64,000 nt of DNA. Origin: Escherichia coli. Its GTDB lineage: Bacteria > Pseudomonadota > Gammaproteobacteria > Enterobacterales > Enterobacteriaceae. The position numbers and the translations under genes are program-made. The first letter of the stretch is position 1; the number at the start of each line of letters is the position of its first letter. Positions 838 to 55,601 of the stretch are shown piece by piece. The DNA lies in NCBI RefSeq assembly GCF_013122565.1, contig NZ_CP053258.1, one strand, 5' to 3'. Below the pieces are notes generated by a model. It was not told where the DNA came from. It saw nothing but the letters and a program-made list of their open reading frames with translations, and searched no databases.

Positions 838-2582
838 TGGCCAAACTGCATTTTGTGAAGTTGCGCGTAAACGCCACGGTGCTCAAGCAAATCGTTATGC
901 GTACCGCGTTCCACAATGACACCATCCTCGACGACCACGATTTCGTCTGCCTTTTCAATGGTAGACAAGCGGTGGGCAATCACCAGAGAGGTACGGTTTT
1001 TCTGCAACTCATCCAGTGCCGCCTGAATCGCACGTTCGGATTCGGTATCCAGAGCCGAGGTAGCTTCGTCCAGAATCAGAATCGGGCTATCACGCAGCAA
1101 GGCTCGAGCGATAGCAATACGCTGACGCTGACCGCCAGAGAGCAGCACGCCGTTTTCACCAATCACTGTATCGAGACCGTTATCCATCTTATTGATGAAG
1201 TCCATGGCGTAGGCCATACGCGCCGCTTCTTCAATTTGCTCACGGCTGTACTGTTCAGTCCGTGCGTAAGCAATGTTGTTAGCAACCGTATCGTTAAACA
1301 GATGGACATTCTGCGACACCAGAGCAACCTGGTTACGTAACGACGCCAGGGTATACTCGCGCAGATCGTGACCATCCATCAGGATTTCGCCTTCATCAAT
1401 ATCGTAAAAACGCGTGATCAGGCTGGCGATAGTTGATTTACCTGAACCAGAGCGTCCAACCAGAGCAACCGTCTTCCCTGCCGGAATTTTCAGGTTGATG
1501 TTACGCAATGCGGGTACGTCACGTCCCGGATAAGTAAAGGTGACATTGCGGAATTCCACGTCGCCAGTCGCACGCTCGATCACGCGCTTACCTTCGTCTT
1601 TCTCCTGCTCACTGTCCAGAATGGTAAACAGCGTCTGACAAGCCGCCATACCGCGCTGGAACTGGGCGTTAACGTTGGTCAGCGATTTCAGTGGACGCAT
1701 CAGTGCAATCATTGAAGAGAAAACAACGGTAATCGTACCGGCAGTCAGGCTATCCATGACACTTGGGAAGCTCGCCGCATACAGAACAAACGCCAGCGCC
1801 AAAGAGGCGATCAGCTGAATGATCGGATCAGAGATGGAAGAGGCTGAAACCATTTTCATCCCCTGAAGACGCATTCGGTTACTGACTTTATCGAAGCGTT
1901 TCGTTTCCACTTCCTGACCACCGAAAATCAATACTTCTTTGTGGCCCTTCAGCATTTGTTCTGCGCTGGTGGTCACCTGCCCCATTGTGTTCTGCATGTT
2001 TTTACTGATGTTACGAAAACGCTTCGATACAACGCGAATCGCAATCGAAACAATCGGTGCCAGCACAATCAAAATGATCGACAGTTGCCAGCTGTAATAG
2101 AACATCATGATGAACAGGCCGATGATCGACGCACCTTCACGCACAACAGTAATCAGTGCGCTGGAAGAAGAAGAAGCAACCTGTTCGGAATCGTAGGTGA
2201 TACGTGACAACAGCGTACCCGTTGACTGTTTGTCAAAAAATGAAACAGGCATTCCCATCATGTGACCAAACAGGCGGCGACGCATAGTCATTACCACCTT
2301 TCCTGATACCCAGGAGATACAGTAGCTGGAGACATAGCTGGTGATACCACGTAAAATCATCAGCCCGATCACCACCAGCGGCATCCACACCAGCACGGAG
2401 CGATCTGTTTTACCAAAGCCATCATCAAGAAGTGGCTTAAGGAGCGATAACATGAAGGTATCGCTGGCTGCGTTGAGGATTAACGCTACGCCCGCCACGA
2501 TCAGACCCGCTTTAAAAGGCGCAATGGTTGGCCACAGTCGGCGGAACGTCTGCCACGTAGAGAGATCTTTGTCGTTATGCAT
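834..2582 (-). CDS. msbA: Lipid A/LPS ABC exporter (flippase)
   Basis: 582 aa ORF; N-terminal membrane domain plus Walker [10 protein letters not shown] and ABC signature LSGGQRQR; matches E. coli MsbA by recall. Confidence 0.96.
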
Positions 2583-31832: not shown

Positions 31833-31986
31833 CATTATTCCTCAAATTACGTCACTCCCGATCGGGAGTTCCCTCTACTCTCTATTCCAGGCTAATAATC
31901 AGCTTGAGGAAAGAAGAAAATACTGAATTTTCAGTTGATAGAGTGCCGGATGCGACGCTACCGCGCCTTATCCGGCAATGCATTAA

Positions 31987-38393: not shown

Positions 38394-40160
38394 ATGAATA
38401 AATCCCGTCAAAAAGAGTTAACCCGCTGGTTAAAACAGCAAAGCGTCATCTCCCAACGTTGGCTGAATATTTCTCGTCTGCTGGGCTTTGTGAGCGGCAT
38501 ATTGATCATTGCCCAGGCCTGGTTCATGGCGCGAATTCTGCAACATATGATTATGGAGAATATTCCCCGTGAAGCCCTGCTGCTTCCCTTTACGTTACTG
38601 GTTCTGACCTTTGTACTGCGCGCATGGGTGGTCTGGTTACGCGAACGGGTGGGTTATCACGCCGGGCAGCATATCCGCTTTGCCATCCGCCGTCAGGTTC
38701 TCGACCGTCTGCAACAAGCAGGGCCAGCGTGGATTCAGGGTAAACCTGCGGGGAGCTGGGCGACGCTGGTACTCGAGCAAATTGACGATATGCATGATTA
38801 CTATGCACGCTACCTGCCGCAAATGGCGCTGGCAGTGTCGGTGCCGTTGCTGATTGTGGTGGCGATCTTCCCCTCTAACTGGGCTGCGGCGCTCATTCTG
38901 CTGGGCACTGCTCCGTTAATTCCGTTGTTTATGGCGCTGGTTGGAATGGGGGCTGCCGATGCTAACCGACGTAACTTTCTCGCTCTTGCTCGCTTAAGTG
39001 GGCATTTCCTCGATCGCCTGCGCGGCATGGAAACATTGCGTATTTTTGGTCGTGGTGAAGCTGAAATTGAAAGTATTCGTTCTGCTTCGGAAGATTTCCG
39101 CCAACGGACAATGGAAGTGCTACGGCTGGCGTTTTTATCCTCCGGCATTCTCGAATTTTTTACCTCGCTATCAATTGCTCTGGTGGCGGTCTACTTTGGT
39201 TTTTCCTATCTCGGCGAGCTGGATTTTGGTCATTACGATACTGGCGTGACGCTGGCTGCGGGTTTTCTGGCCCTGATCCTTGCGCCAGAGTTTTTCCAGC
39301 CATTACGCGATCTCGGTACGTTTTATCATGCTAAAGCCCAGGCTGTTGGTGCAGCTGACAGTCTGAAAACGTTTATGGAAACCCCGCTCGCCCATCCGCA
39401 ACGTGGTGAGGCGGAATTAGCATCGACCGATCCGCTGACCATTGAGGCCGAGGATCTGTTTATCACGTCGCCGGAAGGTAAAACGCTGGCCGGACCGCTG
39501 AACTTTACTTTGCCAGCAGGCCAACGTGCAGTGTTGGTTGGTCGTAGCGGTTCAGGTAAAAGCTCACTGCTGAACGCGCTTTCTGGTTTTCTCTCATATC
39601 AGGGATCATTACGAATCAACGGGATAGAATTACGCGATTTATCACCAGAATCATGGCGTAAACATCTCTCCTGGGTTGGGCAAAACCCACAATTACCGGC
39701 AGCAACATTGCGGGATAACGTACTACTGGCGCGACCTGATGCCAGCGAACAAGAACTACAAGCAGCGCTGGATAACGCCTGGGTCAGCGAGTTTCTACCG
39801 CTCCTGCCACAAGGCGTTGATACGCCTGTTGGCGACCAGGCTGCCCGCCTTTCCGTGGGGCAGGCGCAGCGCGTGGCGGTGGCCCGTGCGTTACTAAATC
39901 CCTGTTCGCTATTACTGTTGGATGAACCCGCTGCCAGCCTTGATGCTCACAGTGAACAGCGCGTAATGGAGGCGCTGAATGCCGCCTCTCTGCGCCAGAC
40001 AACGTTAATGGTCACCCACCAGTTAGAAGATCTTGCTGACTGGGATGTCATTTGGGTTATGCAGGATGGCCGGATTATTGAGCAAGGACGTTACGCGGAA
40101 TTAAGTGTGGCTGGTGGTCCATTCGCCACATTACTGGCCCATCGTCAGGAGGAGATTTAA
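38394..40160 (+). CDS. cydD: Cysteine/glutathione ABC exporter subunit needed for cytochrome bd assembly
   Basis: 588 aa; six TM segments plus NBD with Walker [10 protein letters not shown]. Confidence 0.93.
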   Translation: MNKSRQKELTRWLKQQSVISQRWLNISRLLGFVSGILIIAQAWFMARILQHMIMENIPREALLLPFTLLVLTFVLRAWVVWLRERVGYHAGQHIRFAIRRQVLDRLQQAGPAWIQGKPAGSWATLVLEQIDDMHDYYARYLPQMALAVSVPLLIVVAIFPSNWAAALILLGTAPLIPLFMALVGMGAADANRRNFLALARLSGHFLDRLRGMETLRIFGRGEAEIESIRSASEDFRQRTMEVLRLAFLSSGILEFFTSLSIALVAVYFGFSYLGELDFGHYDTGVTLAAGFLALILAPEFFQPLRDLGTFYHAKAQAVGAADSLKTFMETPLAHPQRGEAELASTDPLTIEAEDLFITSPEGKTLAGPLNFTLPAGQRAVLVGRSGSGKSSLLNALSGFLSYQGSLRINGIELRDLSPESWRKHLSWVGQNPQLPAATLRDNVLLARPDASEQELQAALDNAWVSEFLPLLPQGVDTPVGDQAARLSVGQAQRVAVARALLNPCSLLLLDEPAASLDAHSEQRVMEALNAASLRQTTLMVTHQLEDLADWDVIWVMQDGRIIEQGRYAELSVAGGPFATLLAHRQEEI

Positions 40161-53122: not shown

Positions 53123-53547
53123 ATCCCCTCCAGAAATATGTGACTTATCCTTTACGCTGGCAGTATAACGGGAAAGGCCTTGCTAATACGTGATGACATC
53201 ACATTTAAGCATGGCAAATGTCTGAAAAATGAGCGAATAATCGCGTTATACTCCCTCTTGCTGATAAGTCTGCAAAAACAACAAAATCAAATAATTAGCA
53301 TGATAAATTATTTTTTATTACGCCTAAAGGATTAAATCTTTTGCTTGCACTACACTGTCAATCAGACAAATGACTATATGGGGCAACCCGCTGTTGCCCT
53401 AAATCAAATTTACTGGATTTATTTATCTGGTGAATGGCTCACCTTCGTTTTTAAAATAGCCGCGCATTATTTCCGTCGTCACTTATTTACGACGACCCTA
53501 TATAACGACCATATTTTTCACAGGGTCAATTTTTAATTGAGGTGGAT

Positions 53548-54243
53548 ATGTTCAGAAAATTAGCAGCTGAATGTTTTGGTACTTTCTGGCTTGTTTTTGG
53601 TGGCTGTGGTAGTGCTATTCTGGCCGCAGGCTTCCCGGAATTAGGCATCGGTTTTGCCGGCGTGGCGCTGGCATTCGGTTTGACCGTTCTGACGATGGCC
53701 TTTGCTGTTGGTCACATTTCTGGTGGTCATTTTAACCCGGCGGTCACTATTGGTTTATGGGCTGGCGGACGTTTTCCGGCAAAAGAAGTCGTTGGCTACG
53801 TAATTGCCCAAGTTGTCGGCGGTATTGTTGCAGCGGCGCTGCTGTATTTAATTGCCAGTGGTAAAACGGGTTTTGACGCGGCAGCCAGCGGTTTTGCTTC
53901 TAACGGTTATGGCGAGCATTCACCAGGCGGTTATTCCATGCTTTCCGCGCTGGTAGTTGAACTGGTATTGAGTGCAGGTTTCCTGTTGGTGATCCACGGC
54001 GCAACCGACAAATTCGCTCCGGCAGGTTTTGCGCCGATCGCGATTGGTCTGGCCTTAACCCTGATTCACTTAATCAGTATTCCGGTGACTAACACTTCTG
54101 TTAACCCGGCGCGCAGCACCGCGGTTGCCATCTTCCAGGGCGGCTGGGCATTAGAACAACTGTGGTTCTTCTGGGTGGTGCCAATTGTCGGCGGCATTAT
54201 CGGTGGTCTGATTTACCGGACTCTACTGGAAAAGCGTAATTAA
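53548..54243 (+). CDS. aqpZ: Aquaporin Z
   Basis: ATG at 53548 ([19 protein letters not shown]...) gives 231 aa; two NPA motifs (HFNPAVT, VNPARS). Confidence 0.96.
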
Positions 54244-54289
54244 TTAGTATTGGCATTTTATCTGCCCTGGTTATTTTATCTTCGACGTT

Positions 54290-54540
54290 ACAAACCGCAC
54301 GGGTGTTGGTGGCGTCAAAATCGCTGAAGCGTTCCCCGAAGGCCGGGGCAGCCCACATGGATGTGGGCTGAGGGCGCGTCTTACAGGGACGTTACCTCGC
54401 GCCCGACCCGGTAGCCGAAGGGGATAAGCTGAAGGTACCGCGCAGCGGCGATTTTGTTCGCCAGAGCCCGGGGGTGCAGGGGGCGGCGGCGACTGGCCGC
54501 CCCCTGCGCGCTCCCTGCGCCAGTGGCTTTATATGGCATT
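54290..54540. other. GC-rich intergenic element with several perfect hairpins
   Basis: Perfect inverted repeats cagcccacat/atgtgggctg (about 54349-54370), cagggggcggc/gccgccccctg (about 54477-54506) and gggcgcg/cgcgccc with a 19-nt loop (about 54372-54404); GC content far above flanks. Function unknown. Confidence 0.5.
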
Positions 54541-54701
54541 GCACATGAAAGGAGCGCAACAATGCTAAACGCTCATATAGAATTAAAAATCCCCCTCTGA
54601 TGCATAACATTTCCTTTTAATTGCAACTTTACTCGTCCTTCCGCTTTCAGTAGTGTGTCATCGCGCATTTCGACTTCTTTCTTTGCAAGGACTGGGTTTT
54701 C

Positions 54702-55601
54702 ATGTTTTCTGGGCTGTTAATCATTTTGGTTCCCCTGATTGTGGGTTACCTCATTCCTCTTCGCCAAAAAGCTGCATTAAGAGTTATTAATCAGCTATTA
54801 AGCTGGATGGTTTACCTCATTCTCTTTTTTATGGGTATCAGTCTGGCGTTTCTCGATAACCTCGCCAGTAACCTGTTGGCGATTCTGCATTATTCTGCCG
54901 TCAGTATTACCGTTATTTTACTGTGTAATATTGCCGCCCTGATGTGGCTGGAGCGCGGTCTGCCGTGGCGCAATCACCATCAGCAAGAAAAACTCCCATC
55001 GCGTATTGCGATGGCACTGGAGTCGCTAAAACTGTGCGGCGTAGTAGTGATTGGTTTTGCCATTGGTCTGAGTGGACTGGCTTTCTTACAACACGCGACC
55101 GAAGCCAGTGAATACACCTTAATTCTGCTACTTTTCCTCGTCGGTATTCAGTTGCGCAATAATGGCATGACCTTAAAGCAGATTGTCCTTAATCGCCGGG
55201 GAATGATTGTCGCCGTGGTGGTGGTTGTCAGTTCATTAATTGGTGGTTTAATTAACGCCTTTATTCTTGATCTCCCCATCAATACCGCGCTGGCAATGGC
55301 CTCCGGTTTCGGCTGGTATTCTCTTTCCGGTATTTTATTGACCGAATCTTTTGGTCCGGTAATCGGGAGCGCGGCGTTTTTTAATGATCTGGCCCGTGAA
55401 CTGATTGCTATTATGTTGATCCCTGGGCTGATTCGCCGCAGCCGCTCTACTGCACTGGGCTTATGCGGTGCCACATCAATGGATTTCACCCTGCCCGTTC
55501 TTCAACGTACTGGCGGACTGGATATGGTCCCGGCGGCAATTGTTCACGGTTTTATTCTTAGCCTGTTAGTGCCGATCCTCATCGCCTTTTTCTCTGCATA
55601 A
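54702..55601 (+). CDS. ybjE: Lysine exporter LysO
   Basis: 299 aa polytopic membrane protein MFSGLLIILVPLIVGYLIPL... Confidence 0.85.
   Translation: MFSGLLIILVPLIVGYLIPLRQKAALRVINQLLSWMVYLILFFMGISLAFLDNLASNLLAILHYSAVSITVILLCNIAALMWLERGLPWRNHHQQEKLPSRIAMALESLKLCGVVVIGFAIGLSGLAFLQHATEASEYTLILLLFLVGIQLRNNGMTLKQIVLNRRGMIVAVVVVVSSLIGGLINAFILDLPINTALAMASGFGWYSLSGILLTESFGPVIGSAAFFNDLARELIAIMLIPGLIRRSRSTALGLCGATSMDFTLPVLQRTGGLDMVPAAIVHGFILSLLVPILIAFFSA

Follow-up and report, generated by a model that had tools for sequence, protein, structure and literature searches.

The window analysed here is a 64,000-nucleotide stretch of Escherichia coli DNA (contig NZ_CP053258.1), and the element in question is a GC-rich, hairpin-dense block in the intergenic DNA between aqpZ and lysO (also named ybjE), two genes of the + strand. 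From the data presented below it was concluded with considerable confidence that the block is one copy of a non-coding, multi-copy repeat family of the Enterobacteriaceae, ∼300 bp in length, with a conserved strand-specific fold. The GC content of 54288-54562 is 0.647, compared with 0.393 for the remaining aqpZ-lysO intergenic DNA and 0.51 for the whole window; calculated per 100 nt, it was 0.64-0.72 over 54300-54549 and 0.33-0.44 in the flanks on either side. Four perfect inverted repeats were identified, of 12, 10, 7 and 7 bp. The original prediction, made from the letters of the sequence, had described a GC-rich block in AT-rich surroundings, located between same-strand genes and holding at least three such repeats, and all of this was confirmed. 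Its proposed extent, 54290-54540, required slight enlargement, as the high-identity part of the repeat runs from 54288 to 54562 and weaker homology to other copies reaches roughly 54246-54600. The principal features of the locus are as follows.

53542-54243, + strand: aqpZ
54288..54562, + strand: high-identity repeat body, an A-type copy (megablast, and alignment with the K-12 and yohP-dusC copies)
54349-54358/54361-54370: perfect inverted repeat, 10 bp
54372-54378/54398-54404: perfect inverted repeat, 7 bp (I11)
54476-54487/54496-54507: perfect inverted repeat, 12 bp (I2)
54508-54514/54551-54557: perfect inverted repeat, 7 bp (I12)
54702-55601, + strand: lysO/ybjE

The block is a dispersed repeat

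The aqpZ-lysO intergenic region was compared by megablast with 5,426 complete E. coli genomes, and 22,269 matching places were detected in 5,425 of them (median 4, maximum 9 per genome). A collinear match over the whole intergenic region was present in only 895 genomes. The recurring part corresponds to query positions 45-319, which is 54288-54562 of the window, and has 91-94% identity at other loci. The question of whether the block is repeated elsewhere or strain-variable, for which a BLASTN search had been recommended, can thus be answered with both. K-12 MG1655 harbours two intact copies (915,009-915,283 and about 2,229,215-2,229,375) and one remnant; its aqpZ-lysO copy shares 91.6% identity and is inverted relative to the flanking genes, and a further copy lies between yohP and dusC. 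Copies from Klebsiella were 83-86% identical and occupied up to 13 places per record.

Species-representative genomes were scanned with a pattern for hairpin H1 of the element (CAGCCYRCATGGATGYRGGCTG), yielding 55 loci from Escherichia species, Pseudescherichia, Pseudocitrobacter, Enterobacter, Kluyvera, Klebsiella and Raoultella, in addition to three contigs from Lachnospiraceae metagenome-assembled genomes (MAGs). MAG contigs labelled Desulfacinum (L011), Sporobacter termitidis (L033) and 'Proteobacteria' (L017) hold copies indistinguishable from those of Klebsiella or E. coli, and these bins are most likely contaminated by enterobacterial contigs. No phage matches to the element were found, and the 'plasmid' matches inspected (H37 and H42) were chromosomal DNA labelled as plasmid; the remaining 'plasmid' records, large and 'non-mobilizable', appear to be chromosomal fragments too. 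Phage or plasmid cargo was rejected on these grounds, and the earlier suggestion of a foreign DNA remnant was not borne out.

A covariance model (R1) was built from the enterobacterial copies, against which the window copy scored 188.8 bits at 54307-54467. Neither blastn nor R1 located a second copy inside the window; a weak R1 match at 39827-39897 (10.6 bits, E = 1.2, 70% GC) probably arose by chance. R1 did detect, at 24-66 bits, a class of strongly diverged copies, designated B-type, with the loops CAUGGAUG, CAGGGAUG, ACAGGGACG or CAGGAG; these had not been selected by the exact-pattern search. In Kluyvera, Pseudocitrobacter, Enterobacter and Pseudescherichia a B-type copy lies head-to-head with most A-type copies, the two being on opposite strands with their 5' ends 55-115 nt apart. 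In record L043, an unclassified gut Enterobacteriaceae genome, the pair comprises 1538-1697 (-) beside 1850-2008 (+), with a distance of about 150 nt. Further pairs occur in records L061, L018, L049, L034, L016 and L023-L030. The E. coli copies are solitary, without a B-type partner. The spacer of the L043 pair (1690-1830) is filled by three tandem units of ∼50 bp (TTCAGAATGATTGGTTTTGGTTGTTAAATTAAGGGCAAGRCTGAGCAGTT), each of which contains a weak promoter-like TTCAGA-17-TTAAAT.

The fold is conserved on one strand

RNA of the + strand (54288-54575) was predicted to fold at -150 kcal/mol (z = -4.56; 0 of 200 dinucleotide shuffles were as good), which is 17 kcal/mol better than RNA of the - strand (-133.2 kcal/mol, z = -3.53). 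The fold was drawn by hand on an alignment of 48 distinct enterobacterial copies and comprises P1a, P1b, helix B, P2, H1, H2 and H3; two further domains follow on the 3' side. On the window copy these are placed as listed.

54310..54463, + strand: domain I, a TwoAYGGAY-like rod (RF01731 match and covariance model R1)
54310-54314/54459-54463: helix P1a, part of domain I
54316-54324/54448-54456: helix P1b, part of domain I
54325-54330/54428-54433: helix B with tandem G.A, part of domain I
54333-54347/54407-54424: helix P2, part of domain I
54349..54370, + strand: hairpin H1, CAGCCCACAUGGAUGUGGGCUG, with loop CAUGGAUG and GGA at 54359-54361 (10-bp inverted repeat)
54372..54404, + strand: hairpin H2, GGGCGCG...CGCGCCC plus an upper stem, with loop ACAGGGACG and GGA at 54387-54389 (I11)
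54439..54447, + strand: small side hairpin H3, CGC-GCA-GCG, at a three-way junction
54476..54507, + strand: domain II, a 12-bp G+C-rich hairpin with no T-run behind it (I2)
54508..54564, + strand: domain III, in which GCGCUCC (54508-54514) pairs with GGAGCGC (54551-54557) (I12)

Across the 48 copies, 98.1% of cells were in standard pairs and compensatory (two-sided) changes were found at 15 of the 52 pairs. Shuffled controls gave 91.1% and none of 500 reached the observed value, while sliding the pairing partners reduced it to 36-41%. The covariation score was 0.235 (0.108 when shuffled, reached by 0 of 500; ≤ 0.054 with slid partners). Related sequences can beat a shuffle control without any structure, therefore the slid control and the count of two-sided changes constitute the stronger evidence. 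Hairpin H1 was ascertained by a search pattern in which only two of its pairs could vary.

P1a and P1b, which close both hairpins, together form 14 pairs, six of them with compensatory changes. Helix B contains a conserved 5'-GA-3' opposite 5'-GA-3', and the three Watson-Crick pairs flanking this tandem G.A covary (UA 26/CG 18; GC 32/AU 12; GC 26/AU 17/UA 3). In H1, alignment columns 86/95 form a G-C pair in 28 copies and an A-U pair in 20, a pair of the H2 upper stem is A-U in 27 and G-C in 21, and the middle pair of H3 is G-C in 39 and A-U in nine. RNAalifold and the minimum-free-energy and Rfam-style solutions pair CUGAAGCG with CGCGCAGCGG; this arrangement was dropped in favour of helix B and H3, as two-sided compensation was found with the latter only. 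Among 28 copies, 5 of the 12 pairs in the domain II hairpin show compensatory changes and the closing helix of domain III, GCGCUCC/GGAGCGC, is invariant. Paired cells of the 48 copies include 69 G.U and two A.C, which argues for selection on one strand, the + strand of the window, and rules out a symmetric palindrome of double-stranded DNA.

The domain III helix buries a Shine-Dalgarno-like AAAGGAG (54548-54554), with an ATG at 54562-54564. An A/GTG is positioned 7-12 nt behind GGAG in most Escherichia, Kluyvera and Pseudocitrobacter copies, and the Klebsiella copies have no start codon. The short open reading frames (ORFs) behind this start codon differ from copy to copy and so were not read as genes.

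Domain I is related to the TwoAYGGAY RNA

The window was scanned permissively with the Rfam covariance models, as had been advised, and a match to RF01731 (TwoAYGGAY) was obtained at 54315-54454; it spans the full model (1-168) and, at 27.6 bits (E = 0.21), falls short of the gathering score, which is 43 bits. The remaining matches in the window had E ≥ 1 and were to eukaryotic or archaeal models, and were regarded as chance. TwoAYGGAY was described as two hairpins with AYGGAY loops closed by P1, which is often very long; it was reported from the human gut, gamma-Proteobacteria and Clostridiales, and its authors considered it 'probably an RNA' without a cis-regulatory role (Weinberg et al., 2010; PMC2864571). 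Tandem G.A is a further reported feature of the motif (PMC4333381).

The H1 loop of the window copy, AUGGAU, fits AYGGAY. Across copies the H2 loop follows A-N-GGA-N, and in the Kluyvera copy (L034) and in L043 it too is AUGGAU. The Kluyvera copy, alignable along its full length with the E. coli element, scored 54.2 bits against RF01731, above the gathering score. The Lachnospiraceae copies scored 72-79 bits (72.3-78.9) against RF01731 and 44-54 bits against the enterobacterial model R1, and the 24-nt H1 hairpin CAGCCCACATGGATGTGGGCTGAG is identical in E. coli and in these bona fide TwoAYGGAY RNAs. Because Lachnospiraceae loci carrying the identical CAGCCCACATGGATGTGGGCTGAG and a Kluyvera copy homologous over its full length both score above threshold, the enterobacterial repeat is a diverged TwoAYGGAY branch that is mostly missed by the Rfam model; homology between the two is considered likely.

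The two groups have in common a pair of adjacent terminal hairpins with GGA-centred loops, a long closing stem P1 with tandem G.A in the stem, and a multi-copy, intergenic distribution without a conserved gene partner. They differ in that P1 of E. coli is shorter than the Rfam model by about 13 positions per side, that the enterobacterial copies add H3 and the 3' domains II and III (about 100 nt outside the Rfam model), and that copies form head-to-head A/B pairs in several genera.

The twin loops resemble a dual CsrA site

Both hairpin loops read CA-N-GGA-N-G (H1, ACAUGGAUGU; H2, ACAGGGACGU). In the H2 loop CA, GGA and G are invariant in all 48 copies, the first N being any of four bases and the second any of three. 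The motif is seen again in the B-type copies. The GGA triplets at 54359 (H1) and 54387 (H2) are 28 nt apart. The selection experiments of Dubey in 2005 reportedly gave RUACARGGAUGU as the CsrA SELEX consensus, and that of RsmE is said, from the work of Schubert in 2007, to be (A/U)CANGGANG(U/A); according to Mercante in 2009, one CsrA dimer reportedly bridges sites 10-63 nt apart. The loop motif matches both consensus sequences, and the spacing of the loops falls within this range. The twin loops therefore have, as predicted from sequence, the form and separation expected of a double site that a single CsrA dimer would occupy. The same ligand has been proposed independently for TwoAYGGAY by Gardner and Eldai, who used motif scanning and called it a testable prediction (PMC4333381). 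No experimental follow-up of this proposal was found in the literature.

In these respects the element resembles CsrB, CsrC, McaS and RsmX/Y/Z: its loops match the CsrA/RsmE site CANGGANG, and the two sites have a spacing that a dimer could bridge. It differs from CsrB and CsrC, which have 13-22 sites, in having two only, for which binding is predicted from sequence. It also differs from the whole group in showing no sequence homology or Rfam match to them, in having no identified UvrY/GacA-type promoter or terminator, and in being a dispersed repeat instead of a single-copy gene.

Copies are found in both orientations and lose their core

Flanking genes were classified relative to the orientation of the element for 48 copies: (+,-) in 21, (-,-) in 15, (+,+) in 12 and (-,+) in none. 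The element thus always abuts at least one gene 3' end and was never (0 of 48) found between divergent genes. No conserved neighbouring gene or partner protein was apparent; in Enterobacteriaceae and Lachnospiraceae alike, the element lies beside unrelated housekeeping genes. True REPs are found next to copies in Klebsiella and at yegH-asmA.

At three loci both orientations occur with the flanks fixed. At aqpZ-lysO the element is forward in the window, in O157:H7 and in 09-02E, and reverse in K-12, VTB96933v and 81009. At yohP-dusC it is forward in Ecol_867 and reverse in K-12, the junction extending into the last dusC codons. At yegH-asmA the orientation of L056 is opposite to that of L019 and L044. 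A leader of about 45 nt and a trailer of about 35 nt invert along with the core and are about 60% similar between alleles, which suggests that the inversions are old or were independent events. Two inverted REPs bracket the reverse allele at yegH-asmA only; nothing convincing in the way of flanking inverted repeats was seen at the inversion boundaries of aqpZ-lysO and yohP-dusC.

The changes at the ends of these cassettes can be followed into the adjacent genes. The last aqpZ codon differs by allele class, reading ...EKRN* in the window (54226-54243) and ...EKRD* in K-12 (L001 3853-3870), and the divergent aqpZ-lysO cassette begins directly behind a TAATTA common to both classes. The polymorphic yohP-dusC cassette enters the dusC coding sequence, K-12 having ...IEKL* and Ecol_867 ...IDKLR* (L067 930-960 compared with L003 3320-3350). 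The region adjoining lysO is constant in all alleles.

Sixty E. coli genomes sampled evenly down the ranking were assessed for an empty aqpZ-lysO site. Several alleles were found, with spans of 619-795 bp, and none was empty, which suggests that the insertion is old. Slippage between short direct repeats has removed the two-hairpin core from the aqpZ-lysO alleles of 09-02E and 81009 (ST131-type) and from the yegH-asmA remnant of K-12, and such losses indicate that single copies are dispensable. The remnant (L068 2500-2640; NC_000913.3 about 2,139,500-2,139,640) is a 5'-truncated member of a second subfamily; its core was lost between ACCCGAT direct repeats, and a plain REP comes next.

Terminal inverted repeats were not present, the ends TTACAAAC... 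and ...GGAGCGCAACAA not being inverted repeats of each other, and no duplicated flank was detected in alignments of copies from different loci. The terminal inverted repeats and target-site duplication that mark an element derived from an insertion sequence, or a miniature inverted-repeat transposable element, were thus not visible. No associated transposase, reverse transcriptase or recombinase was seen. Since any single copy can be dispensed with and copies are polymorphic, the behaviour of the family is that of a repeat that spreads or recombines and not of a fixed gene.

Transcription signals and coding potential

Two further features of the locus were considered.

54250..54277, + strand: promoter-like TTGGCA-16-TATTTT directly upstream of the element (consensus scan; speculative)
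54392..54610, - strand: 72-amino-acid ORF over the element, not a gene

The consensus scan returned the single promoter-like site, compared with 0.4 expected. No intrinsic terminator was predicted in 54100-54760 on either strand, in agreement with the earlier view that the block is not a simple terminator, and none lies behind any domain. Palindromes occur upstream of copies in Pseudescherichia (CTGTAAGACCGAAACTTACAG) and Enterobacter (CTTACAGGAAGCTGTGAG). No claim of a UvrY/GacA box is made for them, since the order and spacing of the half-sites vary, the covariation is like that of an RNA hairpin and the E. coli copies have none. Four overlapping ORFs, including 54392-54610 (-), gave no Pfam matches, and copies differ within the latter by frame-breaking indels of 1-2 nt. 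A protein-coding gene was rejected for these reasons, and to regard the minus-strand ORF as a GC artefact, as was done originally, is reasonable. In the limited set of published tables that was searched, nothing on expression or CsrA binding of the element was found.

Relationship to known repeats

The element shares with REP/BIME, ERIC/IRU, boxC and RSA that it is short, palindromic, intergenic, multi-copy, near gene 3' ends, strain-variable and sometimes beside REPs. REP (PU) units are 35-40 bp in length and usually alternate in orientation. Two REP consensus sequences were used as blastn-short queries; they gave no match in 54244-54701 and, as a positive comparison, did match 31949-31976 of the window, which is probably an ordinary REP unrelated to the element. 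A degenerate REP/BIME, one of the identities first put forward, was consequently rejected: there is no consensus match, the unit is ∼300 bp in three domains, and selection acts on one strand. The segment ggcgcgtcttacagg, which had been thought to resemble REP, is the 5' half of hairpin H2.

RSA, from an account by Bachellier and colleagues in 1999, is reportedly a palindromic repeat of ∼152 bp with ∼6 copies in K-12, and it might be the same DNA as the element. A systematic survey of E. coli stem-loop repeats lists only PU-BIME, ERIC, BoxC and Eco-1, and the present family is not among them (PMC2267715). The lack of RefSeq annotation for the element carries no weight, as the K-12 feature table omits REPs even at yegH-asmA. 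No paper containing the H1 hairpin sequence was found.

Discussion

Taken as a whole, the data are best explained by a repeat family that acts as RNA through twin CsrA-type loops, an explanation that in our judgement is evenly poised between right and wrong. Of its parts, action of the element as RNA appears rather probable, and CsrA is a possible ligand, with the chances somewhat against it. The conserved unit would be a folded single strand, corresponding to the + strand of the window, in which domain I is a diverged RNA of the TwoAYGGAY type. In this strain it may be transcribed by read-through from aqpZ, there being no terminator between aqpZ and lysO, and the resulting RNA would bind CsrA, or else a different RNA-binding protein that forms dimers. 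Binding could have one of two consequences, titration of the protein or its tethering to the host transcript. Transcription of the element, its binding of CsrA and possible effects on aqpZ and lysO are what we infer, and nothing suggests a dedicated role of the element in regulating either gene.

A number of observations weigh against this explanation. The window copy lies below the RF01731 gathering score, and its H2 loop is AGGGAC with G in a Y position, and so is not AYGGAY. GGA is not enriched outside the two loops, with four on the + strand, which is about chance level. Folded single-stranded DNA also tolerates G.T wobbles, so that strand asymmetry alone is no proof of RNA. The tandem contexts are antisense in 15 cases and co-directional in 12, a poor fit with a role that depends on the host transcript, and deletion of the core in three cases gives no sign of selection against its loss. 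A conserved promoter or terminator was not found, the site at 54250-54277 being unmatched in the K-12 copy, and intergenic features of aqpZ-lysO and yohP-dusC are absent from the Hfq RIL-seq/CLASH and 3'-end tables searched. In the CsrA CLIP-seq supplements of Potts et al. (2017), ybjE and dusC are marked 'No', and the searchable supplements hold no coordinate within the K-12 element; both points are weak, as the peak table is possibly outside the files searched.

The main alternative is a selfish, non-autonomous mobile or recombining element whose fold and loops serve its own propagation, for example by offering a trans-acting enzyme a folded single strand of DNA, or an RNA intermediate, to recognize, and which has no host function. 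We hold this to be a real possibility although the odds do not favour it, and both this and the RNA explanation could be true. It would account for the dispersed copies, the several alleles at one locus, the opposite orientations at aqpZ-lysO, yohP-dusC and yegH-asmA, the repeated loss of the core by slippage, the absence from divergent intergenic regions (0 of 48) and the frequent position beside REPs. The 24 nt of H1 that are identical in gut Firmicutes and E. coli, and the lack of a conserved neighbouring gene in either phylum, point the same way, and compensatory changes that separate multi-copy subfamilies are expected if selection acts on master copies. Set against this, the ends show no terminal inverted repeats or target-site duplications, no transposase, reverse transcriptase or recombinase is associated, phage copies are absent, and there is no evidence that any plasmid copy is genuine. 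With no empty aqpZ-lysO site in 60 genomes the insertion appears old, which gives no evidence of recent movement, and tandem G.A, where it occurs inside a helix, is an RNA motif.

A separate small RNA gene, equipped with a promoter and a 3' end of its own, such as a sponge similar to CsrB or McaS or a small RNA derived from a 3' untranslated region, would explain the strand-specific fold and could use the promoter-like site at 54250-54277; in other genera the 55-115-nt spacer of the head-to-head pairs could hold a bidirectional promoter. This we regard as improbable, since K-12 does not conserve that site, none of the domains is followed by an intrinsic terminator, the Hfq interactome and 3'-end tables searched do not include the element, and no Rfam small RNA family matched. 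The original proposal of a structured RNA thus stands in so far as a covariation-backed, strand-specific fold related to a known motif was found; derivation from a 3' untranslated region was not shown, and a dedicated cis-regulator of lysO is impossible, because K-12 carries its copy here in the opposite orientation and further copies occupy unrelated loci. A leader or riboswitch for lysO might have been suspected from the position of the element between the two genes, on their strand, and from the buried Shine-Dalgarno-like sequence. However, K-12 and many other strains carry an inverted copy here, other copies flank unrelated genes, 140 nt separate the Shine-Dalgarno-like sequence from the lysO start downstream of it, and the lysO-adjacent region is constant in all alleles; as to an aqpZ terminator, no T-run terminator is present. 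These cis-acting roles are scarcely credible. Equally remote is a palindrome cluster of the REP/BIME type, serving as an mRNA 3' stabilizer or a gyrase/IHF site: the element is intergenic and palindromic, always abuts a gene 3' end and in Klebsiella and at yegH-asmA adjoins REPs, but 54244-54701 lacks a REP match, the same query having detected REP-like sequence in another part of the window, and neither the ∼300-bp unit of three distinct domains nor the one-strand selection evident from 69 G.U and two A.C agrees with such a cluster.

A more speculative extension of the twin-loop explanation, which we think rather unlikely, is that the family constitutes a novel class of portable RNA modules, ∼300-nt cassettes with a high-affinity dual CsrA site that would spread and flip at gene 3' ends by an undescribed mechanism, their orientation switching neighbouring transcripts into or out of the CsrA regulon.

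The motif class TwoAYGGAY and the published CsrA idea are already known. No earlier description was found of the sub-threshold E. coli/Klebsiella branch, the extra domains, the head-to-head A/B pairs or the orientation polymorphism. The best-annotated bacterial genome thus contains an unannotated structured repeat, and the orientation polymorphism of this repeat at three loci is accounted for by no tested mechanism. Since 2010 TwoAYGGAY has remained an orphan among RNA motifs; most known examples come from gut metagenomes and from Clostridia that are hard to handle, and CsrA binding, published in 2015, is the sole functional proposal. A diverged branch of this fold, missed by standard annotation, is present in nearly every E. 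coli. As K-12 MG1655 holds two intact copies, the function of TwoAYGGAY becomes testable in E. coli K-12, the organism in which CsrA is best understood, by standard genetics and gel shifts and from CLIP and RNA-seq data that already exist.

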